From: an uncultured virus (IMG/VR IMGVR_UViG_3300043567_001092)
Lineage: Duplodnaviria; Heunggongvirae; Uroviricota; Caudoviricetes
Virus record (IMG/VR): IMGVR_UViG_3300043567_001092
Direction: 5' to 3' (one strand)
DNA: 62,719 nt
In this document: positions 5,438 to 46,805 of the stretch, in pieces
How the letters are laid out: every line of letters begins with the position of its first letter
How positions within the stretch are numbered: position 1 is the first letter of the stretch
Program-made: the position numbers and the translations under genes
The notes under the pieces: generated by a model
Databases searched by the model: none
Told to the model about the DNA's origin: nothing
What the model saw: the letters and a program-made list of their open reading frames with translations, nothing else

Positions 5438-5629
5438 ATGGAAATAATTATGGAATTATATAAGCTTTTAGTTGTTAGAAATAGAGAAAAGAAGGTTATT
5501 GCCGAAAACTTGAGCAAAGAAGAGGTGTCTGTAGCAAAGACAGATTGGGCAACTATTTATAATAACGACGTTTATTTCGATCCAGTTCCAGTGTTATTGG
5601 TTGAAGTGCAGCGTGAGGGTGAAGAATGA
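5438..5629 (+). CDS. Hypothetical protein, first gene of the array operon (not a family member)
   Basis: ORF downstream of the promoter, ATGA overlap with the next gene. Start may be 5450. Confidence 0.6.
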   Translation: MEIIMELYKLLVVRNREKKVIAENLSKEEVSVAKTDWATIYNNDVYFDPVPVLLVEVQREGEE

Positions 5630-5826
5630 GGAAACGCGAGCAGGCAGAAGTACATAACGCCTTGTTCTATCAAGTAAGGTACATTCTAGATGTAATTCAA
5701 GAACCTGAAGAAGTTACAGAATATACTATTATGGATATCTTGTTAGATAATCGACTCAGACCTGTTGATGTTGCTGAGTTGCAAAAGCAAGTAAGATATT
5801 TTATTGCGAATCGGAATATAAGGTAA
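5626..5826 (+). CDS. MKKRxQ-family microprotein 1
   Basis: Starts MRKREQA. Confidence 0.8.
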   Translation: MRKREQAEVHNALFYQVRYILDVIQEPEEVTEYTIMDILLDNRLRPVDVAELQKQVRYFIANRNIR

Positions 5827-5830
5827 ATAT

Positions 5831-6028
5831 ATGGTCAAAAGAAGGCAGCTAAGTGATTTTCTTAAAAAGTATCTCTACAATAAGCTTTATAGCCAGTCTA
5901 TGATCACAACTGAATACGTTTGGGACAAAGTATGGTACAGCACTAGACCTGATCTCTACCTATTGCTTCATGTTAATATCGAAATAGAAATTACTAAACA
6001 CATAAGACAAATTAAGGCCACTAAATGA
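5831..6028 (+). CDS. MKKRxQ-family microprotein 2
   Basis: Starts MVKRRQL. Confidence 0.8.
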   Translation: MVKRRQLSDFLKKYLYNKLYSQSMITTEYVWDKVWYSTRPDLYLLLHVNIEIEITKHIRQIKATK

Positions 6029-6216
6029 GGAAAAGAGACCAGATTGATGATTCTAAATTTTTTTGGCGATTAGTTGACCGCACCTTATCTTGGCGCATAG
6101 ACGATGAACTTGGGGCATATCTTAGATGGCAATTTCGCGACAATTTAGATGATAACCTTTACTATCACTTGTATAGACACATAAGCGATTTCTTAAGGCA
6201 AGAGGAATTAAAATGA
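6025..6216 (+). CDS. MKKRxQ-family microprotein 3
   Basis: Starts MRKRDQI. Confidence 0.8.
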   Translation: MRKRDQIDDSKFFWRLVDRTLSWRIDDELGAYLRWQFRDNLDDNLYYHLYRHISDFLRQEELK

Positions 6217-6392
6217 GAAGAAGAAATTCAATTGATGCATACCATAGACTATTGCTCTCTCTTGCTAAGAATTCAGGTAAAGTCGTAAAAGATGACTATT
6301 TTAACAGACTTATGGATATAGTTCGCGAAGGGGCTAACCAAGAAATGAAAATTAAGCTCTATGCCTATTTAAAAGATGTGAGGTCAAAATGA
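6213..6392 (+). CDS. MKKRxQ-family microprotein 4 (59 aa, below track cutoff)
   Basis: Starts MRRRNSI, ATGA overlaps at both ends. Confidence 0.75.
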   Translation: MRRRNSIDAYHRLLLSLAKNSGKVVKDDYFNRLMDIVREGANQEMKIKLYAYLKDVRSK

Positions 6393-6571
6393 AGAAACAT
6401 ATTCACATGGACGACATGTTTTATATAAAAATGCATACAGCCATAAAGTCTAGATTAGATGATAGTTTGTACGATAGATTGTATTTTATATTTTTAGACG
6501 ACAAGATGAATTGCATTAGGCGTGAATTGAGAAGACATATAGCAAATTCTCTCGTAAGATGGCACAGATGA
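6389..6571 (+). CDS. MKKRxQ-family microprotein 5
   Basis: Starts MKKHIHM (divergent tag), ATGA overlaps. Confidence 0.75.
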   Translation: MKKHIHMDDMFYIKMHTAIKSRLDDSLYDRLYFIFLDDKMNCIRRELRRHIANSLVRWHR

Positions 6572-6747
6572 GAAAACGAGAATTTATTGAAAAAAATTTT
6601 CATGAAAAAATCTATGAAAAATACCACGATCAACTTGATGCAAATTTGCATTTTAAATTACACCAAAAAATATACCACGAACTACGTGAAGACATTTATT
6701 GGGAATTATATAAACAAGTTAGGAACATAGTAGCTAATTGGAGCTAA
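6568..6747 (+). CDS. MKKRxQ-family microprotein 6
   Basis: Starts MRKREFI at the ATGA overlap. Confidence 0.8.
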   Translation: MRKREFIEKNFHEKIYEKYHDQLDANLHFKLHQKIYHELREDIYWELYKQVRNIVANWS

Positions 6748-6748
6748 T

Positions 6749-6934
6749 GTGAAGAAACGTAAGCAATTAGATAAATTCTTTTTCAGAACACGAATGAGGT
6801 TGAATAAAGACATACCATTTCGTTTATATTCTAGTGGCCGCGTAAATCATTATATTGATTCATCTTTGACAAACAATTCTGTATGTAGCGGTATTATATT
6901 GTTAATTAAATCAGAAATCGAGGGCGAAGAATGA
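6749..6934 (+). CDS. MKKRxQ-family microprotein 7
   Basis: GTG start, MKKRKQL. Confidence 0.8.
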   Translation: MKKRKQLDKFFFRTRMRLNKDIPFRLYSSGRVNHYIDSSLTNNSVCSGIILLIKSEIEGEE

Positions 6935-7143
6935 GGAAGAGGGAGAGGGCCAACCTTCAGGTTAGAAGGTTAGTAGATTACATACCATGCGATATACTTA
7001 CGGCTGGGTTAACAAGCAGAATCAGCTTTAAAGCCGCTGATATGTATGATATACTTAAAGTGGGTATTATTAATAGGCTTATACATTGCATACAAGACTA
7101 TGATTCAAAAAAGGCATCAAATGAGGCGAAGAGAAATACTTAA
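6931..7143 (+). CDS. MKKRxQ-family microprotein 8
   Basis: Starts MRKRERA. Confidence 0.75.
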   Translation: MRKRERANLQVRRLVDYIPCDILTAGLTSRISFKAADMYDILKVGIINRLIHCIQDYDSKKASNEAKRNT

Positions 7144-7330
7144 CCAGCAGTTTTATATTTGGAACGAAAGCCAATGGATTGATAAGCTTTGGTATCAACT
7201 TGGAAGCGAGAGAACTAAGGTATTGATACCATTTATTAAAAACCATATTGGTGTTGAACTTAAAGAACAGATATATGGACAGCTTAAGTGTAATTTGAGA
7301 TTACATGTAAGAAATACTGAAGGGATTTAA
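7121..7330 (+). CDS. MKKRxQ-family microprotein 9
   Basis: Internal ATG gives MRRREIL. Confidence 0.75.
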   Translation: MRRREILNQQFYIWNESQWIDKLWYQLGSERTKVLIPFIKNHIGVELKEQIYGQLKCNLRLHVRNTEGI

Positions 7331-7331
7331 G

Positions 7332-7511
7332 ATGATAAAAAGAATTCCTATTTCTAGTGAAAAGATTAGCGATAAGCTTTTTGATATGGTGTATAGTCAA
7401 CCTTATTATGGAATGCGAAAGCGTATTCGTAATCAACTTAGTGTTAAGCTCAGTAACCAATTATATCAGGAATTGATTTTGCCTATTGCCTATCAAAAGA
7501 GGGTTAATTAA
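7332..7511 (+). CDS. MKKRxQ-family microprotein 10 (59 aa, below track cutoff)
   Basis: Starts MIKRIPI, contains IRNQLSVKLSNQLYQEL. Confidence 0.78.
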   Translation: MIKRIPISSEKISDKLFDMVYSQPYYGMRKRIRNQLSVKLSNQLYQELILPIAYQKRVN

Positions 7512-7512
7512 T

Positions 7513-7761
7513 ATGAAAAAGCGAAAACAGTTGGAGAATCAGTTCGGGTATCAGTTGGGGTATGAGTCGGTGAATCAGTTGGTGAATCAGTTGAGGTATC
7601 AGTTGGTGTATCAGTTGGTGTATCAGTTGGTGTATCAGTTGGAGAATCAGTTGGTGAATCAGTTGGAGAATCAGTTGAGGTATCAGTTGAGGTATCAGTT
7701 GAGGGATCAGTTGGTGAATCAGTTGAGAAAAACTGAAACTGTTTACAAGAGGGTTAATTAA
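7513..7761 (+). CDS. MKKRxQ-family microprotein 11 (near-pure QLxx repeat)
   Basis: MKKRKQLENQFGYQL..(QL[VRE][NYD])n. Confidence 0.8.
   Translation: MKKRKQLENQFGYQLGYESVNQLVNQLRYQLVYQLVYQLVYQLENQLVNQLENQLRYQLRYQLRDQLVNQLRKTETVYKRVN
7528..7725 (+). repeat. 12-nt tandem repeat CAGTTGNNGNAT, 16 units plus a partial
   Basis: Read directly from the sequence. Confidence 0.92.
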
Positions 7762-7762
7762 T

Positions 7763-7945
7763 ATGAAAAAGCGAAAACAAATTGCAGACATATCATTTAA
7801 TGTTTTCAGAGAAGCATTTATTACACAGATTTATAAAAAAAGTGACTTAAAGTATAATTGCATAATTGATGAGCAACTGACCTCTAAATTAGTAAATCAG
7901 ACTCTTGGATATCAAATACGATACTTGATTATAGGTTTGTTCTAA
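7763..7945 (+). CDS. MKKRxQ-family microprotein 12
   Basis: Starts MKKRKQI. Confidence 0.8.
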   Translation: MKKRKQIADISFNVFREAFITQIYKKSDLKYNCIIDEQLTSKLVNQTLGYQIRYLIIGLF

Positions 7946-8125
7946 ATGGTTAAAAGAATCCCACTCAAAGACGGATTATATGTTAAAATAGACAGTGCTT
8001 TTAACTGCCAGTTAGAGTACAAAGTCTATACGCTGCTTCGTGAAAAGCTTTTCGTTGTTCTTTGGGACGAAATTAGGGATCAACTTGAAAGAAATGTCAG
8101 AATATCTTTAAAAAACAGGGCATAA
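7946..8125 (+). CDS. MKKRxQ-family microprotein 13 (59 aa, below track cutoff)
   Basis: Starts MVKRIPL, contains WDEIRDQL. Confidence 0.78.
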   Translation: MVKRIPLKDGLYVKIDSAFNCQLEYKVYTLLREKLFVVLWDEIRDQLERNVRISLKNRA

Positions 8126-8126
8126 G

Positions 8127-8300
8127 ATGAGGAAAAGAGAGCAGATTGATAACATTTTATTTGTTCAATTTACAGATGTGCTTAAAGACTCATTTGGGGA
8201 CAATGTAAGCATGCCATTTTTTTATAAGATAATGCTGGCATTACAAGGGGAATTAGTTGGCGAACTTTATAGACAATTAGAATCACAGGTGTTGAGATGA
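8127..8300 (+). CDS. MKKRxQ-family microprotein 14 (57 aa, below track cutoff)
   Basis: Starts MRKREQI. Confidence 0.8.
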   Translation: MRKREQIDNILFVQFTDVLKDSFGDNVSMPFFYKIMLALQGELVGELYRQLESQVLR

Positions 8301-8494
8301 AGAAACGAGAACAACTGATAACTAACTTATATTTTAAATTTTATAAGAAATATAACGATTTGCCAAATGAGGAAACTTTTGATATAATCAACGGAGAACT
8401 TGGCGATAAGTTAAATAGACAGATTTGGTATCCTGTTCGTGGGGAGTTATTCGATCAACTTTATTGTCATACTATTAAGAAAGAAGCGAAATGA
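8297..8494 (+). CDS. MKKRxQ-family microprotein 15
   Basis: Starts MKKREQL. Confidence 0.8.
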   Translation: MKKREQLITNLYFKFYKKYNDLPNEETFDIINGELGDKLNRQIWYPVRGELFDQLYCHTIKKEAK

Positions 8495-8700
8495 AAAAAC
8501 GAGTTCAAATACCTGGGCATCTTGGTGACAAATTGTGGGAACAACTGGCTTACACCATGAGCGGTCAATTAAGATTCAAGCTTAAAATGGTTTTAGCAAA
8601 CTCTAGTTTAGTTGATGAATATGACACTGCTGCGGCGCATTGCCACCTTAGAAAAAATGTTTATTGCCACCTTAGATTTAACAGTGGGATTAGAAAATGA
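8491..8700 (+). CDS. MKKRxQ-family microprotein 16
   Basis: Starts MKKRVQI. Confidence 0.8.
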   Translation: MKKRVQIPGHLGDKLWEQLAYTMSGQLRFKLKMVLANSSLVDEYDTAAAHCHLRKNVYCHLRFNSGIRK

Positions 8701-8867
8701 GACAACGCGATCAAATATATAGACATTTTTCTTCGCATTTAGATTATGAACTAAAGTGTTTGTATAGAAATCAATTTGATGAGTGGTTGTTTTATCATAT
8801 TGGGCGAAACATAGGAAATACTGTCAAGTATGATCTTATTAATTTGCAGGAATTGTTGGGAAAATGA
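8697..8867 (+). CDS. MKKRxQ-family microprotein 17 (56 aa, below track cutoff)
   Basis: Starts MRQRDQI, ATGA overlaps. Confidence 0.8.
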   Translation: MRQRDQIYRHFSSHLDYELKCLYRNQFDEWLFYHIGRNIGNTVKYDLINLQELLGK

Positions 8868-9055
8868 GAAAGCGCGAAGAAATAAGTGTTATAAACAGCA
8901 TAGACCAGATTTCTAGAAACAAAATGCTTATTCAAGTAGGTACGCCTGTACGTAATCAGATTGTTAGCAGATTGCGCGACAATCTTTTAAATGAACTATT
9001 AGACCAACTGTATATGCATACGGCTTATTACCTCAATGAGAGGGTGACAAAATGA
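8864..9055 (+). CDS. MKKRxQ-family microprotein 18
   Basis: Starts MRKREEI. Confidence 0.8.
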   Translation: MRKREEISVINSIDQISRNKMLIQVGTPVRNQIVSRLRDNLLNELLDQLYMHTAYYLNERVTK

Positions 9056-9249
9056 AAAAAAGGATTGAGATTGATTCCATGGTTTTTGATAAGATTCAGG
9101 AGCATCTTTTTAATTTTTATTTCGATAAGAGAATTGATCGGTCGCTATACAAGAAATTCTTAGATGATCTTGAGGAATCTGACGCAAACAATTCCGTCAA
9201 TCTTATAATGTCGGCAGTAATTTGGCGCATTGAAAGGGAAACACTATGA
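9052..9249 (+). CDS. MKKRxQ-family microprotein 19
   Basis: Starts MKKRIEI. Confidence 0.8.
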   Translation: MKKRIEIDSMVFDKIQEHLFNFYFDKRIDRSLYKKFLDDLEESDANNSVNLIMSAVIWRIERETL

Positions 9250-9443
9250 AAAAACGTGATCAAATTAACTATCAACTTTATGAGCTATACTTTGAATTTA
9301 ATAAACTGTATCCAAAGTTATCATCAACAAATGATTATTACGTAATTAATACTGCAACAAGAACAGCACTTTATGATATGTTTTACGGTGAAATTAGATG
9401 GCATCTTAAAGGTTTTGTGAGAGATTTTAAGGGTTTGTCATGA
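9246..9443 (+). CDS. MKKRxQ-family microprotein 20
   Basis: Starts MKKRDQI. Confidence 0.8.
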   Translation: MKKRDQINYQLYELYFEFNKLYPKLSSTNDYYVINTATRTALYDMFYGEIRWHLKGFVRDFKGLS

Positions 9444-9634
9444 TAAAGCGTAAGCAGATTAACGACAAAGTACATAGTAGACTACTCAAAGTGTGCTTTT
9501 CTAAATTAAAATTACCCAACAATGTTTACTTCGCAATTCATGACAGGCTTACTGAAAAACTATATGAAATTAGTTGGGGGCAGATTAGAAGCAAGGTTTA
9601 CGACGAAATACATATGATAAGTAAAGTGAATTAA
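9440..9634 (+). CDS. MKKRxQ-family microprotein 21
   Basis: Starts MIKRKQI. Confidence 0.8.
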   Translation: MIKRKQINDKVHSRLLKVCFSKLKLPNNVYFAIHDRLTEKLYEISWGQIRSKVYDEIHMISKVN

Positions 9635-9635
9635 A

Positions 9636-9827
9636 ATGACTAAAAGATATCAATTAACAGACAGATTATATACCAGCGTACTAAGAGTATACATGCCGTC
9701 CTCTTCTTGGGTATATGACATGCTGCTTGATGAAATTTATAATCCCATTTATTTACAACTTAGGGATCAACTTAGAGAACACGTTCGCAACAGTATCGAA
9801 TCGTTAAAGCAAAGTGAACTAAAATGA
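9636..9827 (+). CDS. MKKRxQ-family microprotein 22
   Basis: Starts MTKRYQL. Confidence 0.8.
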   Translation: MTKRYQLTDRLYTSVLRVYMPSSSWVYDMLLDEIYNPIYLQLRDQLREHVRNSIESLKQSELK

Positions 9828-10021
9828 TTAAAAGAGAGCAGATCGACAGCCAGATAGATATTATATTATATGCATACGTTGATGAACAAATTTATTATCA
9901 ATTGGATAAGCTTTTTGAAAATTTCTTGAGAGAAGAGCTTGATGACCAATTATATACGGAGCTTGATATAAATCTTCGTCTTGAGCTGTACAGATATCTA
10001 AATAATGGGGTATTAAGATGA
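9824..10021 (+). CDS. MKKRxQ-family microprotein 23
   Basis: Starts MIKREQI. Confidence 0.8.
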   Translation: MIKREQIDSQIDIILYAYVDEQIYYQLDKLFENFLREELDDQLYTELDINLRLELYRYLNNGVLR

Positions 10022-10203
10022 AGAAGAGAGAATGTTTAGAGATGAAATTAGGTGATAAACTAGCTTTCAAATATTATAATGAGTTACAAGATGGCCAACA
10101 CCATTTAATATACGCTCATGTAAAAAAAACTCTCGTGAAAGAGGTTCACCAAAATGTTAGAACTCAGCTAAGTGCCTATCTGAGAGCAGAGGTACCAAAG
10201 TGA
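10018..10203 (+). CDS. MKKRxQ-family microprotein 24
   Basis: Starts MKKRECL. Confidence 0.8.
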   Translation: MKKRECLEMKLGDKLAFKYYNELQDGQHHLIYAHVKKTLVKEVHQNVRTQLSAYLRAEVPK

Positions 10204-10421
10204 TAAAACGCGAGCAGATTGATAGTCATATATATACTTTTATCTATGATGATTTATACAATCAGCTATATGGTCAAATTAGCGTCACGTGCGGTAAATG
10301 GACATTTGACTATGTTTACAGTAGTTTAACTTTGCAGTATTATAACTTATCATCAGATGGCCAGTACAGCTCTTTGGTAAACATCGTTTTAACTGATCTA
10401 GAGAAAAAGGTGTTGAAATGA
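10200..10421 (+). CDS. MKKRxQ-family microprotein 25
   Basis: GTG start, MIKREQI. Confidence 0.8.
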   Translation: MIKREQIDSHIYTFIYDDLYNQLYGQISVTCGKWTFDYVYSSLTLQYYNLSSDGQYSSLVNIVLTDLEKKVLK

Positions 10422-10597
10422 GAAAAAGAGAGCAGATTGACAACACATTGGATGACAATATAAGAGACATTTTGAATGTCAGCTTGGGCTCTAACTTTAG
10501 AAATCAAATGTTTTCACGTATTTATAGAAATGTTAGCGCAAGGGCTGATCTGCTACATTTTATATATTACTATATAAGTACACAAAAGGTTAAATAA
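10418..10597 (+). CDS. MKKRxQ-family microprotein 26 (59 aa, below track cutoff)
   Basis: Starts MRKREQI. Confidence 0.8.
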   Translation: MRKREQIDNTLDDNIRDILNVSLGSNFRNQMFSRIYRNVSARADLLHFIYYYISTQKVK

Positions 10598-10797
10598 TGA
10601 GGAAAAGAGTACAGATAGACAGACAAATTAATGAGAATCTCAGAGACCCTTTTTACGTAAAGCTTAGTAATCAATTTAATTATTATGCTTACAATGACAT
10701 TAGGTCTAACCTATACCCAGAACTTTTCTTGATTGTATACGATCAATTATATAATAATATATATTATGTCATGAGAGAATTGGTAGTGTCAAAATGA
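10597..10797 (+). CDS. MKKRxQ-family microprotein 27
   Basis: Starts MRKRVQI. Confidence 0.8.
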   Translation: MRKRVQIDRQINENLRDPFYVKLSNQFNYYAYNDIRSNLYPELFLIVYDQLYNNIYYVMRELVVSK

Positions 10798-11039
10798 AAA
10801 AGCGAGATCGGTTACTAGATAACACAATGAGTCGGTTAATAGATCTTTTAGAAGACAGGCTTGAGAATAAGATAGTGGATTATTTGGGTTGTCAGTTAGA
10901 TGATAAGTTATATTATGAGTTTAGAAGTGAGTTAAGAATTAAGTTTTATGATCGGTTAGTAGATCAAATGAATAATCAACTAAGACATCATTTAAGGACG
11001 CAAGTATATGGAGTCGAGAGAAAACATAGAAATATTTGA
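10794..11039 (+). CDS. MKKRxQ-family microprotein 28
   Basis: Starts MKKRDRL, clear 4-residue Leu periodicity. Confidence 0.8.
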   Translation: MKKRDRLLDNTMSRLIDLLEDRLENKIVDYLGCQLDDKLYYEFRSELRIKFYDRLVDQMNNQLRHHLRTQVYGVERKHRNI

Positions 11040-11187
11040 TTATACTCGTATAATAATGAGATCGTCATATTTTTCTTCTAACAAAATTATATTTGAAACA
11101 GATCAAAAGCTCATGTGTATGCTAATTCCATTTTTTCTAGAAATGAGGCAGCAAATCAGGGAGCATATTACGGGCAATTGCAAATGA
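11008..11187 (+). CDS. MKKRxQ-family microprotein 29 (divergent, 59 aa)
   Basis: Starts MESRENI, contains MRQQIREHI, ATGA overlap with the next gene. Confidence 0.6.
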   Translation: MESRENIEIFDYTRIIMRSSYFSSNKIIFETDQKLMCMLIPFFLEMRQQIREHITGNCK

Positions 11188-11363
11188 AGAAACGTAAACA
11201 GATTTTCTTGAAGGAATATAACCGCGTATTTACTAAAATGGGTATGCCACTTCCGTCTTCAGTTGAAGAGGCGGTAGAAACTCAGTTAAAAGATAAGCTT
11301 AGGGATGAATTGTTACACCAACTTAGGCTTCACGTTAAAACCCATTTAATGGAAATGAAATGA
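11184..11363 (+). CDS. MKKRxQ-family microprotein 30
   Basis: Internal ATG gives MKKRKQI. Confidence 0.8.
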   Translation: MKKRKQIFLKEYNRVFTKMGMPLPSSVEEAVETQLKDKLRDELLHQLRLHVKTHLMEMK

Positions 11364-11554
11364 TTAAAAGAAAAATGATACAATACAATTTTAAGACTTT
11401 GTTCCACGATTGCCTGTATTCTCAACTTGAGCCAATATTGTATCATAGGCTAAGAGACAGCTTAAACCATAAGCTTCAGCACTATACGCATAACCCACTT
11501 AAGATAGAGCTTTACTATCACATGAATGAAAAGAAAAGCTCCAATTCTAATTAA
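11360..11554 (+). CDS. MKKRxQ-family microprotein 31
   Basis: Starts MIKRKMI. Confidence 0.78.
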   Translation: MIKRKMIQYNFKTLFHDCLYSQLEPILYHRLRDSLNHKLQHYTHNPLKIELYYHMNEKKSSNSN

Positions 11555-14500
11555 GCAACACCAACTGGTTGATATTCAACAGAAATTGCCCATTGAATAG
11601 TCGCACCACTAGTACCATAAACAACCGCAACAACATCATTACCTGAAAGAGCAAATGTAATTGCATAGTCGCTACCATCGCCATCATATCCATTGATGTT
11701 TGAGATAGGGCTTCCAGCAGCTTGAGCCGTTCCACCTGATCTGTAGAAAGTTCCCTCTAAAGCAAATGAACTAACACCGAGTGGGCCATCGCTTCTTCTA
11801 GCAACTGCATTAACTTTAATTCTATAAGAATAGTTATCAGATAAAGTAACTTCAGATCCGCTAATGATTGTACCAGTAGCTCCAACAACAACTTGCGCAG
11901 CAGTTTTTCTAGTTACCGCTGAGTCTGGATGAGATGAATGAGTTTTAAGTTTCTCTACACCAGTCCAAACTTCTTTTGGTTTATTGTTTTCTCTACCGAT
12001 TACAAAGCTTTGGTCTGTAGATTCATTGAATATTCCACCAAGCGCACTTGTTCCGCCAGCGATTGCAATTGAACCTCTGTTAATGAAACTTGTTTCGCCA
12101 CCGTTTACGTTTGAAGCAGTTATATTAACCGGTCTTCCTGGGGAAGTTTGAATATCAGCGCCAGTATTATAAGCCGCTTGTAAACTGATGTCAGCAGATT
12201 TAGCTGCTAATACAGATCCATAAGAAGCCATGGCTCTGAAACGGAGTCTAGTATTAGGTGGTAAAGTACGCTTAAGTCTGATCTTAGCTTTTGGGCCACC
12301 AAACGTTTCAACGTAATCGTAACCAGCTTCTCTGATTCCATCATTAACAATAACTAAAAGCTCTTCGCCAGTTAAGCTCAACTCAGTTGTTTGTTTATAA
12401 ACTGAATGTGCTCCGTAAGTACCGATACCGCCAGCAGAAAGAACTTCTGTACGTTTATTCGGTGGAAGAACTAATTCTGTTCCAGTATCACCAAGTGGTG
12501 CTGGATCTCCATAAAGTGATACGCCAGCAAAAGGACCATCACCTGGGTTATTCACGGTTCCTACCATATTGCCGTTTTGGTAAATGCTTGTACCATCAGC
12601 AAAGGTACCATTAACTATGTTAATGACAATTGAATTACTACCTTGTAGACCGCCCGGCATAACGATAGAAGCAGATTCTATTGTTTCAGTTACATCGGCA
12701 CTTCCGTGAAGAACCCAGGCTAGGGAGGTGGGACTTTCGATTGAACCTTGGTAGATGTAACTGCCTGAGCGTATAATATCTCCGCCAAAATTTGGCGTAA
12801 AATCCATTTTTTGTATATAGACAGACTCATCGTATACTGGTCTCTTAAGAGCAGTATTGATGCTCCCAACATTCCTGTCCTGTTTTCTATGTGCCAAAGT
12901 CAAATTGTCTTGGTCTTCAATGTGCTGATTAACTTGGTAATAAGCCAAAGTATCACTAACACTTAAAGCTGAAATATTTTGATCAACTATAACTGTAATA
13001 GACGACAATGGGAATTTAACTGTGTAATAATGGTGATTTCCACTTAAGTCAATAAACTCAAGCTTATCACCAGTTTGATAACCTAAAAGGTTTGAAGCAC
13101 TCAAAGTAATCATTTGAGTTTTAGCGTCTAATGCTATAACCTCAACTTGAGATTTATAGATGTAAGATCCGCTAGCATCTGCAATACTGTAGTTTGGATT
13201 AACTGCAGATTCAGTCATCGCACCAGTGTAAACTAAGTGGTTTGAACCTTGGTTATCGTTAACCTGTCTTACTTCACCTGGCTCCATCTCTAAAGATCTG
13301 AAGTAAACTTTAGCAGAATTATTGTTATCTCTACGTAATGCAAACCAGTAGATATCTGAAGAGTTTTCAACTAGATAATGCTTAGTAACAAAAACGTCAG
13401 AGTAAACACCTTTAGTATAAACCATAGCGCCAGTGTTAGCTGGTCTGTGTACTGTGCTAGGTGCTTGGCCATCGTTTCCGACTAAGATCATAGATGATGT
13501 TGAGATGCTGCCAATTTTTAACCAATGAGAATCTTCTTCATTAGCAAACTTAACAAAGTCTCCTACTTCTAATAGATTACCGCTGATATCTAAGAAGTTA
13601 CCAGCAATTGTAGCACTTCCGCCCAATGTACTGTAAACAACACCATTAGAGATTGGTTGATTTCTTTCTAACTTAACAAAAGCAACTTCGCCATCTTCCA
13701 AGAAAGCTGTGCCAGTTACGCCACTTGTGTTAAACTTGTTAGCTTCAGGTGAAGATCCAGTAGTATCTACTGTAGCAGTTTGTGGAATAGTGATAGCTAA
13801 ATCACCGACAACAGACTTAACAACCATGTCACCAGTCCATTGAACCGGACCTGCGTATGGATTATTGTCGAAATTTAAGAATACATTTTGGATACCAGTG
13901 TTAGTGAAATCAGTTCCGCTTGGGATCTCAGTAGTGCTAGTTAATTTAAATGATGTAGCATCAATGTAAGTTAACGTAACTAGCTTATATGCTTTAATAA
14001 AAGGAGATAAATTTGAATCGCCATGAATAACAACTGTAGTTGATGGGTTAGAAACTAAACCATGATCAACAGTAGTAGTTACTTTAACTTCAGTAGCAGA
14101 AAGCTTTTGGATAGAAACAATTCTATTTGGATTAGCTACAGTAGTTTCAGCAACAACTGTATCAAAACAGATATCACCACTAGCACTGAATAATTCAGGT
14201 AATGCGCTATCTTGTCCAACTGTGTATTGAGCTTTATCGCCAGCGATACAGAAAATTGCTTGATTAGTTGTATTGTAAGTATTTGAAATAGCGCCAGTAA
14301 CAGTTGTAATAACTTTGTGGAAAGCTATCTCAGCGTAACCGCCAGTATTAATTTGTGTAATTGCTGGATATCCTAGATCAACTGTGATATCTTCACTTAC
14401 CCCAATGCTTTCAATAGTTTTAATACCGCTAGCTTCTCTATTAGGAGCGCCGATAACTACTAAGTCAGATAATAAAACAACTTGTTTAGCAATAAAGCTA

Positions 14501-34607: not shown

Positions 34608-34706
34608 TTAAACCTCCGGTAATATAATATACCACATTATTTAGTTTGAATTTAATTTAGTTTCAATTTAATTTTGTGGTATATTTGTTTAATTAAAGGA
34701 GAATAT

Positions 34707-35699: not shown

Positions 35700-35888
35700 A
35701 TGACTAAGCGCGAATTGTCCGCATCTGTTTACATATTGGTTACTTTTATTATATGCTATTTTGCTTATGGTGTTTATCAGACAAAACAACAAATTTCTCA
35801 AGCTTGTGAAGATCAGTGCTACCCGGCGGATGTTAAAGACGCAGATATGCAATATTGTAAATGTTTTTACAAAAAAGCTGGGATGTAA
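35700..35888 (+). CDS. Small membrane protein with Cys-rich C-terminus
   Basis: Hydrophobic helix, CxxxC..CxC. Confidence 0.6.
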   Translation: MTKRELSASVYILVTFIICYFAYGVYQTKQQISQACEDQCYPADVKDADMQYCKCFYKKAGM

Positions 35889-36061
35889 TGGTTAAAAGAG
35901 AGCGCATTAGTCTTGGTCTTAATGGTAAAATAAGTTTAGTAATCGGCGATCAAGTCGGATACGATCTATTAAATCATTTGTACACGAAGCTCTATAAAGA
36001 TTTAAACTATAGTATTGCAATTAAACTACGTTCATACTTATACGAGAAACCCCAAAAATGA
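35888..36061 (+). CDS. MKKRxQ-family microprotein (dispersed)
   Basis: ATG at 35888 gives MVKRERI. Confidence 0.7.
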   Translation: MVKRERISLGLNGKISLVIGDQVGYDLLNHLYTKLYKDLNYSIAIKLRSYLYEKPQK

Positions 36062-36255
36062 ATAAGAGAGATCAACACACCATTTCATTTGATTATGAGC
36101 TGAGGACAGTATTTCATAATTATTTTTCAACACAAATGCATGGCGATCTTACAAGAGATGTGTGGATGGAAATTTGGGAAAAACTCGCCTACCAACTAAA
36201 AGATAATATGAAAGATAAAGTTAAAGACGTAATTAAGGACAGAATTTCAAAATGA
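36058..36255 (+). CDS. MKKRxQ-family microprotein (dispersed)
   Basis: Starts MNKRDQH, contains WEKLAYQL. Confidence 0.72.
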   Translation: MNKRDQHTISFDYELRTVFHNYFSTQMHGDLTRDVWMEIWEKLAYQLKDNMKDKVKDVIKDRISK

Positions 36256-40643: not shown

Positions 40644-40841
40644 TTAAATGCGTTTTGAAGTCTGAATATATCTTTGCGCCTGTTCTTTGGTTTCTTTATA
40701 TAAAACATCAAATAACATACTGCCGAGATTTGAATATGATTTTGAATAAATACTATAGGATGGCATGTTGCAATATTTTGAATACAGCCTGCTTCTGAAA
40801 CTAGTAAGGTGTGCGCTCCCCAATGCTTCTCGTTTTTCCAT
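40644..40841 (-). CDS. MKKRxQ-family microprotein (dispersed)
   Basis: Starts MEKREAL. Confidence 0.7.
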   Translation of the reverse strand: MEKREALGSAHLTSFRSRLYSKYCNMPSYSIYSKSYSNLGSMLFDVLYKETKEQAQRYIQTSKRI

Positions 40842-40842
40842 C

Positions 40843-41034
40843 TTATTTGCCTATTTTTTCTTCATATAATTGTTGGTGAGTTTGATCTCTTAATTCGTAC
40901 CAGAGCGTGATGTCTTTTAATTGCTCCCAAATTTGGGCATACATTTGATCTGATATTGTGGAATGGAGCCACATATACAGTTCGTCCCTAAATCTCTCTC
41001 TTAGTTTATCCCGAAACTGCTCTCTTTTTCTCAT
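40843..41034 (-). CDS. MKKRxQ-family microprotein (dispersed)
   Basis: Starts MRKREQF, contains ELRDQ and WEQL. Confidence 0.8.
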   Translation of the reverse strand: MRKREQFRDKLRERFRDELYMWLHSTISDQMYAQIWEQLKDITLWYELRDQTHQQLYEEKIGK

Positions 41035-41226
41035 TTATGTATTTTTCTTTTGGGTTTCGTGACAGATTTGTTCACATATTTGATCAATCAATTCTGCATT
41101 GATTTCATATATTTCTTCCCAAGTCCCTTCTAAAACATTATCAATAACGTCACCATATACGTTTCTATCAATCATTTCATATAAATGATCTTTGATTTTT
41201 CTATATATCTGATGACGTTTTTTCAT
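41035..41226 (-). CDS. MKKRxQ-family microprotein (dispersed)
   Basis: Internal ATG at 41226 gives MKKRHQI. Confidence 0.78.
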   Translation of the reverse strand: MKKRHQIYRKIKDHLYEMIDRNVYGDVIDNVLEGTWEEIYEINAELIDQICEQICHETQKKNT

Positions 41227-41233
41227 TGTATGC

Positions 41234-42340
41234 CTACAATCTGATAACTTTGCCGAAATCGCCTGGTGGATTTTGTGACCCAACTCCTACCCAAATAAAG
41301 GGAATGCCTGGATTTGTCGGCGTGTCTGCGCAATCAAAATCACCGAAATATATAATAGCGTCACATTTTCTTTTTACGCATTCGTCAATTGCTGGTTGAT
41401 ATGCAGTTCCACCGCTACCAAATCTTTTTGTTAATACACCAGGTTTAGCTTTTCCACCTTTAATTACATCAACTTTTTGCACTTCAGAATCTGCGTGGAC
41501 TAAGTAAGTGATCGTAGTATTTTTTGCTATAGATGATATTTCATTTAAGAATGATGAGTAAGCTTCGTCCGAGATTGACCCTGACGAATCAGTACATACA
41601 CCAAGTATTAAATTTCTTTTCTTTTTCTTGCCTGGTTGATCTAGCTCAAATCTTCTGTGAGTTTTAAGGCGTGTGCTTTTAGTTTGGACGTCCCTAGCCG
41701 ATGAAACAAAGTTTCTTAAGAGCTGCTTCCAGCTAATTGTCGCTGGTTTATTTAAATTACCAATGATAGACTCTAATCCATTCGGAACAAGCCCACCAGA
41801 TGCCTTTATGGCTTGATTAACCTTGTCTTTAATAATCACTCTATCTAAATCGCCTTTTTCGCTTTCGTTCATTTCATCATGATCGCTCATCCACGATGCT
41901 ACTTCTTGCTTATCTGCTACTTCTGCCATTTCTTTGTAATAGTATTCCCAAGACTCTTTTGGCAAAAGTTTCTTCTTACACATTTCTTCTGCCCACGCAA
42001 GCGTAATGCAATCTGATGGTAAATCAGAAATGTGTTGGTTAATAGCGCAATCTTTTGCTATGTTTGTTAATTGATGATTAAGGATATCTCCAGCCCTATT
42101 GCCGATATGATCTAAAACCGCGTGTAAAACTTCGTGTTTTAACACAGCAATCTGTTGAGCATCGGTTAATGTTGCAAACCAGTCTGGATTTACTTTAAAG
42201 TAAAGCTCTTTGTTCTTAATACCTACGCAAGCTCTTTCAATTTTTGGATCATCATAAACGACTCTAGAGCCTAAAATAAAATTAGCATAGAATCGTTCGG
42301 TATTAATTAACGTAAAAATTGGCTTTTCTAGTAAACCCAT
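41234..42340 (-). CDS. Putative metallopeptidase plus vWA-like protein (DUF2201 type)
   Basis: HEVLH..NIAKDCAINQ, MIDAS-like DSSGS, GGT, YFGD. Confidence 0.88.
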   Translation of the reverse strand: MGLLEKPIFTLINTERFYANFILGSRVVYDDPKIERACVGIKNKELYFKVNPDWFATLTDAQQIAVLKHEVLHAVLDHIGNRAGDILNHQLTNIAKDCAINQHISDLPSDCITLAWAEEMCKKKLLPKESWEYYYKEMAEVADKQEVASWMSDHDEMNESEKGDLDRVIIKDKVNQAIKASGGLVPNGLESIIGNLNKPATISWKQLLRNFVSSARDVQTKSTRLKTHRRFELDQPGKKKKRNLILGVCTDSSGSISDEAYSSFLNEISSIAKNTTITYLVHADSEVQKVDVIKGGKAKPGVLTKRFGSGGTAYQPAIDECVKRKCDAIIYFGDFDCADTPTNPGIPFIWVGVGSQNPPGDFGKVIRL

Positions 42341-42363
42341 GGAAATCTCCTATTATAATAATA

Positions 42364-43422
42364 TTATGCTTTTTCAAACTGAGCTGCGTATTCGGGGTCA
42401 TTTAAGAGATCATTTTTTCCATGGAAATTGCCAAGTTTTCCTAATCCGACAAAGGCTTTCATAGCTAACTCAATTGGGATATCTAGTAGAAATTGCTTTA
42501 GATTATCAATAGACATATCTGCTGAAAGGAGGTGAGGGTTGCTCTCTAGTTTAGCAAATAATTCATCAATTGGCTGATTAAGAACATCCATGCGAACATT
42601 GCTAGCACTTGCCGTGATATCTAATACTTTATTTCTAGCAATTTTTTTGTAGTTTTTAAGAATGTCATTAAGGCTTAATCCTGTTTCTTGCTTAGCTTTG
42701 TGTGTTAATCTAGCCGCTGCTGCAACCGGCCCTACAATACCTGAATATAATTCATATCTTAGACTATCATCTAATCCTTCTTCTAAATCAAGGGCGCCAA
42801 CGCTTTCAAGCCAAGCTCTAGGGTCTCTTGTAACCATTGACATATCAAGTCTTCCGCCTTCTTTTGCAGTAAGATTTAACATCTCAGGTTGTTCACGAAT
42901 AAAAGAAGCAAGGCTAAATAATCCTCTGCTTTCTGCATAAACTAACCATTCTTCAGTTGTAGGAGTGAAATCAATATGACAGAAACGAGATAGCCAAGCT
43001 GAGTCGCTTGTATCTGTTGTAGTGAATCTTTCTGATTGGTAGTTTCCAGCAGCAGCGATACGCCAACCCGGAGGTAATTTGTGTGTATGAATAGTTCCAT
43101 TTTGCACAAAAGAATACATTGCTTGAATTACATCAGTCGGCGCTCTATTTAATTCATCTAAAAAGATAATTCCTTCACCCTCAGTAGGAAACCATTTAGG
43201 TTTTGCATGATAAACTTCGCCGTTTTCGCCTTTAACTAAGAGGCCAACTAAATCGCCCACATCTTGAGTAGCCGTGTGTAAAACTCTTAATTGTAAGTTG
43301 TTCTTTACGCAATACTGATTCCAAAACTGTGTCTTTCCAACACCTTGACTGCCCCAAAAGAATGGAACAATTCGGTTTTTTAATAGAAAAGGAATAGCTT
43401 TGTTGATTTCAGAAATATTCAT
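42364..43422 (-). CDS. MoxR-like AAA+ ATPase
   Basis: Walker A GSQGVGKT, Walker B IIFLDELNRA, AAGN, SRF. ATG at 43422 with GGAGG RBS. Confidence 0.9.
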   Translation of the reverse strand: MNISEINKAIPFLLKNRIVPFFWGSQGVGKTQFWNQYCVKNNLQLRVLHTATQDVGDLVGLLVKGENGEVYHAKPKWFPTEGEGIIFLDELNRAPTDVIQAMYSFVQNGTIHTHKLPPGWRIAAAGNYQSERFTTTDTSDSAWLSRFCHIDFTPTTEEWLVYAESRGLFSLASFIREQPEMLNLTAKEGGRLDMSMVTRDPRAWLESVGALDLEEGLDDSLRYELYSGIVGPVAAAARLTHKAKQETGLSLNDILKNYKKIARNKVLDITASASNVRMDVLNQPIDELFAKLESNPHLLSADMSIDNLKQFLLDIPIELAMKAFVGLGKLGNFHGKNDLLNDPEYAAQFEKA

Positions 43423-43441
43423 CTGGACCTCCGTTTCAATT

Positions 43442-43470
43442 ATCATAACATTTTATTTTCGGTACGTCAA
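43442..43470 (-). promoter_or_regulatory. Sigma70-type promoter for the AAA/vWA operon
   Basis: TTGACG-17bp-TATGAT on the minus strand. Confidence 0.7.
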
Positions 43471-43545: not shown

Positions 43546-44172
43546 ATGGATAACAAAATTACTGAACTTACCCCAGAACAAGAAGCGTTATTTCCAGCTT
43601 ATTTGGAAAAATTCAGAAATATCGGCCTATCAACTACTCCAACAAATAGACAAAAGGCTGAAGAGGCTTTAACAAAAGCTTATGCTTATTTATCTAAAAC
43701 TGATCCTAATTTATGCGTTCCAAATCCAGAAATCATCTGGGCAGAAAGCCCAATGGCAGGCGCAGTTCTTGCTGCTCAACACGCTAAAGGCGATCTTAAC
43801 GTAACAGATTCAGAAGTGCAAGATCAAGCTTGGCGAGCTTCTTATGGTTCATTCGAGGCATACTGGGTGAGTACTTATTCATTTATCTGCAATGAGCTTC
43901 CAGTAGAAAAAGACGAGCTTATCGACATCGTTATGGAAATCATCAATGAGTGCGGCGTGTACTGGACATATAAAGATTTGGTTATCCTTACTCCAAAGCC
44001 AACTTTTATCGGAATGAAAGACGGAAAATTACACAACTCTAAAGGGCTAGCTTTAGCATATCCAGATGGAAACGGAATCTATGCTGTAAATGGTTCTAGA
44101 AAAAACTCTTTAATTGAAGCTACGTTAGAACAAAGAGCTAACAGCTTAATTGGTTCAACTTCAGAAGATTAA
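43546..44172 (+). CDS. DUF6745-like protein
   Basis: ITELTPEQEA..IGLST.P.NR.KAE..IIWAESP..YW..KP..GKLH....AL.YPDG..IYA.NG matches my recollection of DUF6745. Confidence 0.7.
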   Translation: MDNKITELTPEQEALFPAYLEKFRNIGLSTTPTNRQKAEEALTKAYAYLSKTDPNLCVPNPEIIWAESPMAGAVLAAQHAKGDLNVTDSEVQDQAWRASYGSFEAYWVSTYSFICNELPVEKDELIDIVMEIINECGVYWTYKDLVILTPKPTFIGMKDGKLHNSKGLALAYPDGNGIYAVNGSRKNSLIEATLEQRANSLIGSTSED

Positions 44173-44195: not shown

Positions 44196-44387
44196 ATGAG
44201 GCAAAGAGATCAGATAAATAGAATAAGCAACAAGTATTTTGATCATATTGACGGCGACCTTTATAATGAAAATTTTCATTTAATATCAGATTATCTCCAA
44301 TACATTTTATACATTGAGCGCTCACCAGTCGATAACATTGTTGACGAGCTATCCACATATATTGAGACTATGAATTTGGGGAATTGA
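44196..44387 (+). CDS. MKKRxQ-family microprotein (array 2)
   Basis: ATG at 44196 gives MRQRDQI. Confidence 0.78.
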   Translation: MRQRDQINRISNKYFDHIDGDLYNENFHLISDYLQYILYIERSPVDNIVDELSTYIETMNLGN

Positions 44388-44392
44388 TTTAA

Positions 44393-44590
44393 ATGAAAAA
44401 ACGCAAGCAGATAGACGGAATCCTTTTTACGATTATTGAAAACAATCTTTACCATCAGGTATACTACGATGTCAATTCAAAAAATCGAGAAAAGATCTAT
44501 ACAGGAATTTACGAACTGCTTATGGATGAACTAAATGTTAAGTTAATAAATATTATTAACGATTTTATTAAATCGAGAAGAGCATCATGA
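44393..44590 (+). CDS. MKKRxQ-family microprotein (array 2)
   Basis: Starts MKKRKQI. Confidence 0.8.
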   Translation: MKKRKQIDGILFTIIENNLYHQVYYDVNSKNREKIYTGIYELLMDELNVKLINIINDFIKSRRAS

Positions 44591-44784
44591 AAAAAAGGGT
44601 TCAGATACCTGATTTTTTAAATGAAAACATATGCGATCATCTTAGATATAGCATATATGTTCAAGTTGATGATACTATTTGGCGTGTAATACTATCTGAA
44701 CTATATATAAAACTTCATGATAAGCTTAACAATACGTTAATTAATGAAACCTGGGATTATATTAAAATGGGGCCAAAAATATGA
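44587..44784 (+). CDS. MKKRxQ-family microprotein (array 2)
   Basis: Starts MKKRVQI. Confidence 0.8.
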   Translation: MKKRVQIPDFLNENICDHLRYSIYVQVDDTIWRVILSELYIKLHDKLNNTLINETWDYIKMGPKI

Positions 44785-44987
44785 AAAAGCGCATCCAATT
44801 TAATGATCCTCTATATAATATATTCTATCCTAAAATTAGAGATAGAGTTAGGCTTGAAATAAAATATAAAACTTTTGAAAAGATAAGCAAGAGACTCACT
44901 GGTGAGCTTAATTCGCAATTCTGGGGCCAAATTGGATATCAGATTGGTAAATACATCGAGGATAGGAGTTCAAGTGAGAAGGCGTGA
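44781..44987 (+). CDS. MKKRxQ-family microprotein (array 2)
   Basis: Starts MKKRIQF, contains SQFWGQIGYQI. Confidence 0.8.
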   Translation: MKKRIQFNDPLYNIFYPKIRDRVRLEIKYKTFEKISKRLTGELNSQFWGQIGYQIGKYIEDRSSSEKA

Positions 44988-45156
44988 GCAGATTACTGAT
45001 CAGCTTAGGGATAATGTTTGGGAATCTTTAAACGGGCAGCTCCAATATCAAATTGAACCAGATATCTATAATAGGCTGCATGACGTTCTGTGCGAAGAAA
45101 AGAGATACAGACTCATAAGCCAATTATATTTATATTTAAGGACTAGGGTTAACTAA
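44974..45156 (+). CDS. MKKRxQ-family microprotein (array 2)
   Basis: GTG at 44974 with AGGAG RBS gives MRRREQI. Confidence 0.78.
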   Translation: MRRREQITDQLRDNVWESLNGQLQYQIEPDIYNRLHDVLCEEKRYRLISQLYLYLRTRVN

Positions 45157-45360
45157 ATGAGGAAACGAGAACAAATCACTAGTCAATTTTCATATCAACT
45201 TTGGGATAGACTTAGAGATGACATATACGTGCAACTGTATTCCTCATTTAATGAGGACATACACAATAAACTCAGGGACAATCTTTGGCTTGAGCTGCAA
45301 ATATTATTGTACGATAGAACGTATAGCTATTTGCAAAACTATATAGGCAAGAAGCAATGA
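45157..45360 (+). CDS. MKKRxQ-family microprotein (array 2)
   Basis: Starts MRKREQI. Confidence 0.8.
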   Translation: MRKREQITSQFSYQLWDRLRDDIYVQLYSSFNEDIHNKLRDNLWLELQILLYDRTYSYLQNYIGKKQ

Positions 45361-45533
45361 AGAAGAATAAAATTATAGAATTTAAATTAAGAGTTAGATT
45401 AAAAGAACAAATCACAAAATCTTGTGGTTCAGATTGTATCAGCACGTCAAGAAAAAAGCTAAGAGAATTATCATCTTACGACTTATATAAAGCGGCTGTT
45501 GGAGAAATTGTCTCTGCTTCTGTGTCAAAATAA
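45357..45533 (+). CDS. Divergent MKKRxQ-like microprotein (58 aa, below track cutoff)
   Basis: Starts MKKNKII, ATGA overlap, same length class. Confidence 0.55.
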   Translation: MKKNKIIEFKLRVRLKEQITKSCGSDCISTSRKKLRELSSYDLYKAAVGEIVSASVSK

Positions 45534-45552
45534 ATATTTTTTAATATTTTTC

Positions 45553-45581
45553 TTGCTTTTAATATCAGATATTGGTAATCT
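45553..45581 (+). promoter_or_regulatory. Sigma70-type promoter
   Basis: TTGCTT-17bp-TAATCT with extended TG, followed by a GGAGG RBS. Confidence 0.5.
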
Positions 45582-45599
45582 AGGTTTATTGGAGGCGTT

Positions 45600-45989
45600 A
45601 TGAAATTCAAAGCCGGAGATAGATTTATAGTTAAGGCAAGCGAGTCTGATTTAGGAGCCACTGGAAAAATAACTGGAATTGGGTTTAATTCTATACGCCA
45701 ATCTGACGAATATAGATATGTTTGGGACCAGCAATTCGGCGGTTCTACTGGGAGCTGTGATACAGAAGTTGGGGATTCTATGTGGGACATTATTGCGGCA
45801 GATATCCACACACATACATACACACATGTTTACACAATTCCTGAAGACAATTATACAATTTCAGTTGGAAACATCGTTTGGAACAATCCTACTTCCAACT
45901 CTACAAATTGTTCCCACGAATATAAAATGTATAATGGATTTACTGAAAGTTATGAATTTTGCATTAAATGCGATAAAAGAAAGATCTAG
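45600..45989 (+). CDS. Hypothetical protein, SH3/KOW-like start and C-terminal Cys/His zinc-ribbon-like motif
   Basis: MKFKAGDR.., CSH..CIKC. Confidence 0.6.
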   Translation: MKFKAGDRFIVKASESDLGATGKITGIGFNSIRQSDEYRYVWDQQFGGSTGSCDTEVGDSMWDIIAADIHTHTYTHVYTIPEDNYTISVGNIVWNNPTSNSTNCSHEYKMYNGFTESYEFCIKCDKRKI

Positions 45990-45993
45990 TAAT

Positions 45994-46212
45994 ATGAGGA
46001 AAAGAGAGCAGCCTAATAATTTGTTTTTTAACCAACTTGTCATAAAGCTTAGGGATCAAGCTGAAAACCAACTTTGTGATAATTTAAGTTATCAACTACA
46101 TGATAATCTTAAGCTTTACAAGATTTGTGAACAGTTTCGCAATACAGCTCTTAATATTATTCGTACACAATCATTAAATGATATTGATAATAAATTAAAA
46201 AGAAAGGTTTAA
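45994..46212 (+). CDS. MKKRxQ-family microprotein (dispersed)
   Basis: ATG at 45994 gives MRKREQP, contains LRDQAENQLCDNLSYQL. Confidence 0.8.
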   Translation: MRKREQPNNLFFNQLVIKLRDQAENQLCDNLSYQLHDNLKLYKICEQFRNTALNIIRTQSLNDIDNKLKRKV

Positions 46213-46213
46213 C

Positions 46214-46561
46214 ATGGAAAATCTATATCTAGACAAAGAGGCTTTTCTTGAAGATGAATATGTGTCTGAGGTTGTAATCATTGACACGTTACCTGGCGGA
46301 TTTAACCAGAGATCTGAATTATTGCCTGAGCCAATTGAAATTTTGAAATTTGAGAAAGTTAGCAGCAAGTTATCTTTGGAAAGAAAAGTAAGACTATCTG
46401 CAAATTATATTACTGCAGAGGAGGGTCTTAAAATGATCCAAAAAAGTGAGAGACTACACGCCAAATCTAATAGAAAATGTACTTCTTGTGGAGGATACGT
46501 CCCAAAAGAAAATTTTAGTAGATGCAATACTTGCGTTAAATTAAAAAATGTGGTAGACTAA
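46214..46561 (+). CDS. Hypothetical protein with C-terminal CxxC..CxxC zinc ribbon
   Basis: CTSC..CNTC. Confidence 0.65.
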   Translation: MENLYLDKEAFLEDEYVSEVVIIDTLPGGFNQRSELLPEPIEILKFEKVSSKLSLERKVRLSANYITAEEGLKMIQKSERLHAKSNRKCTSCGGYVPKENFSRCNTCVKLKNVVD

Positions 46562-46583
46562 TTAGATAAAATAGGTAGTTAAT

Positions 46584-46805
46584 ATGAAGAAACGTAAGCA
46601 AATATCAGATCATATAAGTAATGATTTAAAGTTTGAGCTTTTTGATAGGCTTGAAGAGCAGGTTGATGGTGAACTTTTTGATCAAATTGATGAGGAACTT
46701 TTTGAGTACGTTACAGGTGGAAGCTACATTGACATAGATGTAAACTTAATAAAAGAACAGTTGTTTTCTCATATTGAAAATATAAATGGCCGAAAGGTTG
46801 GTTAA
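46584..46805 (+). CDS. MKKRxQ-family microprotein (dispersed)
   Basis: Starts MKKRKQI. Confidence 0.8.
   Translation: MKKRKQISDHISNDLKFELFDRLEEQVDGELFDQIDEELFEYVTGGSYIDIDVNLIKEQLFSHIENINGRKVG

Follow-up and report, generated by a model that had tools for sequence, protein, structure and literature searches.

A youngest-looking minisatellite gene in a probable detached DUF6745 repeat library of an uncultured tailed phage

The gene for gp54 of mycobacteriophage Tweety, as well as those for Che8 gp57 and PMC gp51, carries an in-frame 12-nt repeat in which unit positions 9 and 12 are invariant, and in the Tweety tract the variation falls on residues 3 and 4, at codon positions one and two (PMC2884959). 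By a change in repeat number, Tweety is described as escaping a defence system (PMC9262239). Phage pairs of a MoxR AAA+ ATPase and a metallopeptidase-vWA protein were proposed to aid virion assembly (PMC7824862), and one phage MoxR ATPase was required to overcome the defence system DS-28 (bioRxiv 10.1101/2025.11.20.689424). In T4, the internal proteins IPI-III are small and divergent, with a common N-terminal signal and, for some of them, an anti-defence activity (bioRxiv 10.1101/2025.11.20.689424), and recombination-driven segmental amplification was described as a route of copy gain for a counter-defence locus (bioRxiv 10.1101/2022.04.14.488369).

The locus described here, found in an uncultured tailed phage, is a series of small tagged genes of which the eleventh, member 11, is a nearly pure 12-nt repeat. 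Like gp54, member 11 has an in-frame unit of 12 nt, variation at residues 3 and 4 and a change of copy number in a relative. The likeness lies in the repeat pattern; member 11 consists of a 5-residue tag and a short tail around its tract, whereas gp54, in the available part of its description, is one gene with an AAxx tract in cis, and no mini-gene library is described there. The two-gene architecture of the MoxR/metallopeptidase-vWA pair is present at 41234-43446, and the available text of neither paper on such genes mentions DUF6745 or repeat mini-genes. The tag of the mini-proteins is comparable to the T4 signal by position alone, and the bodies of the T4 internal proteins, unlike those of the mini-proteins, are unrelated and non-repetitive. 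As far as its source describes it, T4 amplification involves segments, whereas at member 11 only a 33-bp junction is duplicated around an unrelated body. The tetrapeptide and its period are those of the Q[LV]xx proteins of DUF6745 (PF20530, phrog_31813); unlike tract-bearing DUF6745 proteins, the source phage has a scaffold protein without a tract, and the tract is split into 43 mini-genes. DUF6745 is absent by name from the searched papers, and no description of such arrays or of the module was found in them; supplements lay outside the search, and that of PMC7824862 might list the neighbourhood. In the reading that we favour, with a probability of about 0.55, member 11 is the youngest-looking entry in a detached library of DUF6745 repeats, whose products would serve as exchangeable subunits of the scaffold and whose genes would be born by ordinary recombination.

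The window, that is the whole stretch of 62,719 nt that was analysed, is held by a second record of the source phage (G001), which has 157,572 bp, is 98% complete and is seemingly circular. DNA nearly identical to the window is present in lake-water runs, and no RNA run was listed among those that contain it. No useful relative or host was found for the source phage among GenBank phages, and two matches to short contigs in MAG bins were rejected as host evidence. The coordinates of the locus are given in the table below. In the main array, 20 of the 31 junctions show a 4-nt overlap, and nearly all ORFs begin with the pattern M-x-K/R-R-x-Q, a shared tag that heads very different mini-protein bodies. 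Another 13 tagged ORFs lie outside it, at 35.9, 40.6-41.2 and 44.2-46.8 kb, for a total of 43 tagged members (903 junction pairs), and the main array lies mostly 30 kb away from the DUF6745 scaffold gene. Remote from every cluster, one more tagged mini-gene was seen at 15.4 kb of L008 (G001 about 105,356, minus strand). Low-depth contigs of runs X18 and X1 link distant members (10765/8333, 11340/6204 and 7266/9617), hinting that the array order is reshuffled in relatives. In a relative from run X20 (record 29; window 8491-8700), 8501 is joined to 8696 with room for about 190 other letters, and this slot may hold a different mini-gene (single contig, depth 4). Promoter and terminator scans gave hits at chance level (34 vs 31.6); a short AT-rich 16-bp tandem repeat, possibly regulatory, lies between divergent genes at 34639-34674. 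The source phage also encodes two PI3/PI4-kinase-like proteins (L008:8383-10143 and L009:10638-12305), and a GroEL-like chaperonin and an alliinase-like aminotransferase (L010:5427-8494).

Table. Coordinates in the window of the mini-gene clusters, of the DUF6745 neighbourhood and of the elements around member 11.
Feature	Position	Strand	Description
Main array	5626..11554	+	31 abutting small ORFs, 56-82 aa, 30 counted as tagged
Member 10	7332..7511	+	59 aa; last codons are junction copy 1
33-bp junction copy 1	7497..7529	+	RBS-like stretch, member 10 stop, member 11 ATG and tag
Member 11	7513..7761	+	82 aa; 17 QLxx units between tag and short tail
12-nt minisatellite	7528..7731	+	16 full units and one partial
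33-bp junction copy 2	7747..7779	+	Member 11 stop, member 12 ATG and tag
Member 12	7763..7945	+	60 aa; tag codons same as in member 11, body unrelated
Two more tagged members	35888..36255	+	
Three tagged members	40644..41226	-	Directly 3' of the peptidase-vWA gene
DUF2201 metallopeptidase-vWA protein	41234..42340	-	HEVLH at residue 69
AAA+ ATPase, MoxR-like	42364..43446	-	AAA_5 match, Walker A present
DUF6745 protein (scaffold)	43546..44172	+	208 aa, without an internal QLxx tract
Second cluster	44196..46805	+	Eight tagged members directly 3' of DUF6745, few untagged ORFs interspersed

The original prediction, made from the letters of the window, held that two identical 33-mers spanning RBS, stop, start and tag flank member 11, and that no other junction pair is as similar. 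Both statements were confirmed: the copies are identical, with the identity stopping at both ends, and contain a purine-rich RBS-like stretch, the upstream stop, the ATG and an MKKRKQ tag, and their 33 bp form the longest in-register exact match of the 903 junction pairs; the second longest has 20 nt, and the median is 6. Exact repeats of 33 bp are no rarity across the whole genome (35 runs of at least 33 nt, those listed lying mostly in long repetitive structural genes), and this 33-mer was found in two viral records only, both of the source phage. Elsewhere in the window, an exact 47-bp direct repeat (53554-53600 and 53803-53849) lies within a 576-aa ORF of no known family, and seven near-identical in-frame 45-nt repeats (39623-39939) lie in a virion structural protein gene. 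For the tract of member 11, TRF gave a period of 12 with 16.5 copies at 7528-7725. Sixteen units of QL[VREG][NYD] had been predicted; the 16 full units are present, followed by a partial 17th, and only 14 of them fit that pattern, the exceptions being unit 2 (QFGY) and unit 4 (ESVN). Units vary mostly at positions 7, 8 and 10, while positions 9 and 12 and the adenines at positions 2 and 11 are invariant. CAG TTG codes all 15 QL pairs in member 11, in comparison with 1 of 37 in the other members. The gene lies mid-array, away from the array ends, and its tail matches those of its neighbours at only 10 of 18 positions. No protein relative of member 11 was found at E<=0.001, with weak and unnamed Atlas matches under 0.9, and the protein, as called here, is absent from the protein collection.

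At the DNA level, the repeat of member 11 is fresh: of the 74 pairs of identical residues spaced 4 or 8 apart, 72 use the same codon (30 expected). For the other 42 members the same count is 205 of 512, with 200.5 expected, so their silent sites retain no DNA repeat. Their hydrophobic power peaks at period 4.0 (5.9; 0.9 at period 3.6; 1.45 for untagged ORFs), and the period-12 autocorrelation that had been proposed as a check gave a signal that is real as a class, with lag-12 z>2 in 17 of the 42 members and in 1 of 17 untagged small ORFs. Three places had been named as eroded versions of the same repeat, of which 10794-11039 has a clear period 12 (z12 about 4.2-4.5) and the other two a weak one (45994-46212, z12 1.2 and z24 2.8; 40843-41034, z12 1.8-1.9 and z24 2.0). 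The word eroded was half right, because the protein period outlives the DNA repeat: the repeat is gone from the DNA and the period is retained in the protein. A common period and the profile matches described below, on which the homology is based, support the view that the tetrapeptide repeat of member 11 is present in aged form in the other members, and the 4-residue pattern is probably maintained by selection.

The product of 43546-44172 passes the Pfam PF20530 cut-off (32.8 vs 27 bits). None of the 12 mini-genes scanned matched PF20530, and mini-genes match DUF6745 proteins only in the tract. A profile built from 37 members matched 847 proteins at E<=0.001; among the best 50 of these, 44 have a DUF6745 Pfam row (E<=0.001), and in those displayed a long Q[LV]xx tract lies inside the protein. 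In the alignment of P0001 to a tract-bearing DUF6745 protein both flanks align and the tract does not, and in the source phage protein both flanks are present and the tract is absent. As judged by these matches, the repeat of member 11 is an old DUF6745 protein module and its sequence is not new, and the comparison shows a detached tract library, that is, a scaffold gene without a tract and 43 abutting mini-genes that appear to encode versions of it. One profile match, P0034 (741 aa), lacks a DUF6745 row but contains a subtilase domain, which suggests that fusions of the repeat to other domains may occur.

Pristine arrays of similar design, with their own tags and codon styles, were found at nine loci (L027, L031, L034, L039, L041, L045, L053, L060 and L120). 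Among 82 DUF6745 loci surveyed, 17 were dropped for want of a complete DUF6745 ORF and the remaining 65 formed 47 groups. Free repeat mini-genes were found nearby in 11 of 22 repeat-less groups and in 0 of 25 repeat-containing groups. Leaving out the group of L027, which had been found via its mini-genes, and that of the source phage, which scored 0 because its members are aged, the counts are 10 of 20 and 0 of 25 (p=6e-5, a value that overstates independence, since the groups are related). A pristine mini-gene within 10 kb is missing for half of the repeat-less groups; the detector is blind to aged arrays, and the L033 record has mini-genes beyond the flank. A search by a tag-pair pattern returned only the source phage among viral contigs and 11 metagenome loci, 3 of them true arrays (L018, L021 and L027), and a tag-plus-repeat pattern gave zero matches. 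Tags differ from phage to phage. A 79.8-kb phage (L037:1112-2802 and 12869-15471) has 16 mini-genes with an MKKY-type tag together with a repeat-less DUF6745, an ATPase and a vWA gene, and in the bodies of its mini-genes a regular repeat was undetectable by the detector used.

In the source phage, the DUF6745 gene is flanked by the pair of MoxR-like ATPase and peptidase-vWA genes and by eight tagged mini-genes. The same company is kept by six other short (about 200 aa) repeat-less DUF6745 homologues, with a peptidase-vWA gene near 6 of 6 and an ATPase near 5 of 6, in comparison with an ATPase or vWA gene near 0 of 25 repeat-containing loci and 0 of the 14 remaining repeat-less loci (14 of 20). 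At loci L031 and L034, the mini-genes lie inside the ATPase/peptidase-vWA operon. The scaffold alone is modelled as a confident fold (pLDDT 96), with no PDB match at E<=0.001 (best Z 4.3), by which a new fold is not shown, and its best viral structural match is a DUF6745 protein; in a full-length DUF6745 protein the tract is modelled as long low-confidence helices (pLDDT about 42-69). An ESMFold2 complex model of member 11 with the scaffold scored 0.65, in comparison with 0.02 for the best of three controls; 116 solved complexes out of 157 attain this mark, as do 2 of the 215 mismatched pairs, and both figures are rough for the alignments used here. Contact agreement among the runs was at least 18% and the partner pLDDT at least 63, and the best-defined contacts are centred on Leu 47, 51, 55, 59 and 63, which face scaffold residues 100-110 and 20-27. 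The docking covered member 11, the most regular member, and its controls were unrelated proteins, with no repeat-helix decoys; the contact may have been learned by the model from in-chain DUF6745 sequences. The model supports, and does not show, that member 11 binds the scaffold.

From these contacts we infer a mode of action in which the invariant Leu stripe of a mini-protein would dock on the conserved SYGSFEAYW helix of the scaffold and leave unit positions 3 and 4 as a variable surface. The scaffold would most likely serve the adjacent MoxR ATPase and peptidase-vWA proteins as an unchanging adaptor, and the mini-proteins would be interchangeable subunits that set the specificity against proteins of host defence or of competitors. 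This adaptor and counter-defence reading is placed first among the possible functions by analogy. Its extension to a renewable repertoire, in which one constant DUF6745-ATPase-vWA machine would take dozens of repeat helices, minisatellite entries would mature by mutation into distinct binders of host-defence targets and member 11 would be the entry step in progress, is a tentative proposal that we hold to be rather less probable than its opposite.

As to the origin of the genes, ordinary recombination with minisatellite turnover is the likely mode of birth. In this scheme, homology- or microhomology-driven recombination would bring about a template switch at the tag onto a repeat-bearing donor and then a return switch at the RBS on another copy of the genome, and the two switches would leave exactly the stretch from RBS to tag, 33 bp, duplicated. 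The donor could have been a co-infecting phage that carried pristine mini-genes; alternatively, a seed could have expanded in place. The 12-mer would then expand, contract and swap units, and at a later stage the DNA repeat would decay while selection holds the 4-residue period. In 6 of 8 other arrays the junction matches reach 30-127 nt with variable ends, and such variable lengths and ends fit unequal recombination better than they fit a fixed target duplication. The source phage has RecA-like, gp32-like and RuvC-like genes. Variation in unit number, which had been proposed as something to look for, was seen in the relative from river run X20 as a 72-nt skip, and between L115 and L117 (99.8% identical) 4 of 6 SNPs fall inside one 12-nt stretch of a mini-gene; together, the skip and the SNP cluster indicate rapid unit change. 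A whole-gene duplication would not fit, because body and tail of member 11 are unlike those of members 10 and 12. No template, donor or seed copy of its body was found, the longest word common to the rest of the genome being 13 nt. Import from the CAG TTG-type phage of L120, which shares 24 nt and the codon style with member 11, was rejected, since L120 had been found by that very pattern and the match is circular, and a 47-nt match in L111 proved to be an unrelated simple repeat at a contig end.

The alternatives to such a birth begin with the assembly. That the repeat or its duplication is an artefact has a negligible probability: two other records are 100% identical to the window over 12,283 bp spanning the repeat (possibly from the same lake, so the agreeing records are not independent), run X1 has contigs that are identical to the window at 7500-7625 and 7613-7776, and for a relative with 1-5% divergence from the window in its other pieces, a single X20 contig (depth 3.3) covers the region from end to end. 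The X1 contigs do break at the 33-mer, and for one X1 repeat contig the depth is roughly half that of the flanks (4.5 vs 8.7-10.4), yet three records agree base for base. The same X20 contig carries member 11, with a 15-nt insertion besides the skip, and in a lagoon run (X18) the member 11 tail is shortened by a 9-nt deletion. As a diverged relative already has the gene, member 11 is young and the label newborn is unproven; the original prediction of a gene made by junction duplication and 12-mer expansion followed by diversification stands as to a DNA-young member among aged ones. Presence in the relative also speaks for an account without any birth, in which slippage from one unit re-homogenised the body of an old member 11, and the junctions became identical by gene conversion or unequal crossing-over; internal DUF6745 tracts are likewise homogenised within existing genes. 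The 7529-to-7779 joint of an empty site is absent from the contigs of runs X1, X15, X18 and X20 (4 of 24 runs compared). The contigs of these runs are broken at the 33-mer, and as every 31-letter word of an empty allele would also occur in the occupied one, they would be unable to show it. The account needs two rare events at one member, as the sole fresh repeat in 43 members belongs to the member that also has the sole long junction identity in 903 pairs, and the exclusive CAG TTG coding of its QL pairs also speaks against it. We regard it as unlikely.

Far less probable still is the making or capture of the repeat cassette by a dedicated enzyme (reverse transcriptase, primase-polymerase or recombinase) that would duplicate the junction as in CRISPR or integron acquisition, although the duplication encloses a single gene, with its ends at functional landmarks, and numerous long ORFs of the genome without a Pfam match could include an unrecognised enzyme. 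DRT-type enzyme-made repeat genes are defined by a reverse transcriptase or primase-polymerase and a template. RVT_1 (PF00078) was matched in 0 of 5 records, including the 98%-complete one, as were tyrosine integrase, serine recombinase/resolvase and Cas1 (0 of 5 each, with positive controls matched); Prim-Pol had no match in the source phage or four other array phages, nor was a template found in the source genome. A reverse transcriptase of the host, or a very divergent one, would escape this search. Pfam scans of 45 and 79 ORFs (at least 90 aa outside the window) gave no cassette-making enzyme. With the five families unmatched, no template and junctions of variable length in other arrays, the synthesis of the 12-mer and cassette acquisition that had been put forward are not upheld. 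A diversity-generating retroelement would have an adenine-variable template repeat, of which there is no second copy, and no variation is seen at the adenines in unit positions 2 and 11; member 11 lies mid-array; and the fixed-length, fixed-end repeat of CRISPR or integrons is not seen, as 1 of 903 junction pairs exceeds 20 nt. On the side of function, the mini-proteins might work independently of DUF6745, for instance as decoys or inhibitors that are free and are sorted by their basic N-terminal tag in the manner of the T4 internal proteins, a reading compatible with either birth route. The common tag on very different bodies, the unrelated inhibitors with a common N-terminal signal in T4-type IP loci (bioRxiv 10.1101/2025.11.20.689424), the variation of tags among phages and the L037 bodies without a detectable regular repeat agree with this. 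It is nevertheless improbable, given that the bodies retain the DUF6745 tract period, that the presence of mini-genes tracks the loss of the internal tract and that the complex model beats its controls (0.65 vs 0.02).

Taken as a detached DUF6745 repeat library, the locus makes the life history of small orphan genes of a phage visible in one genome, from a fresh minisatellite to silent-site decay with the protein period retained. The unstudied DUF6745 family becomes directly testable, through a single scaffold with 43 candidate partners and the ATPase-peptidase pair linked to it. Should the adaptor model be true, the phage would have a combinatorial counter-defence repertoire that works without reverse transcription, and the scaffold would be a natural one with exchangeable binding surfaces.
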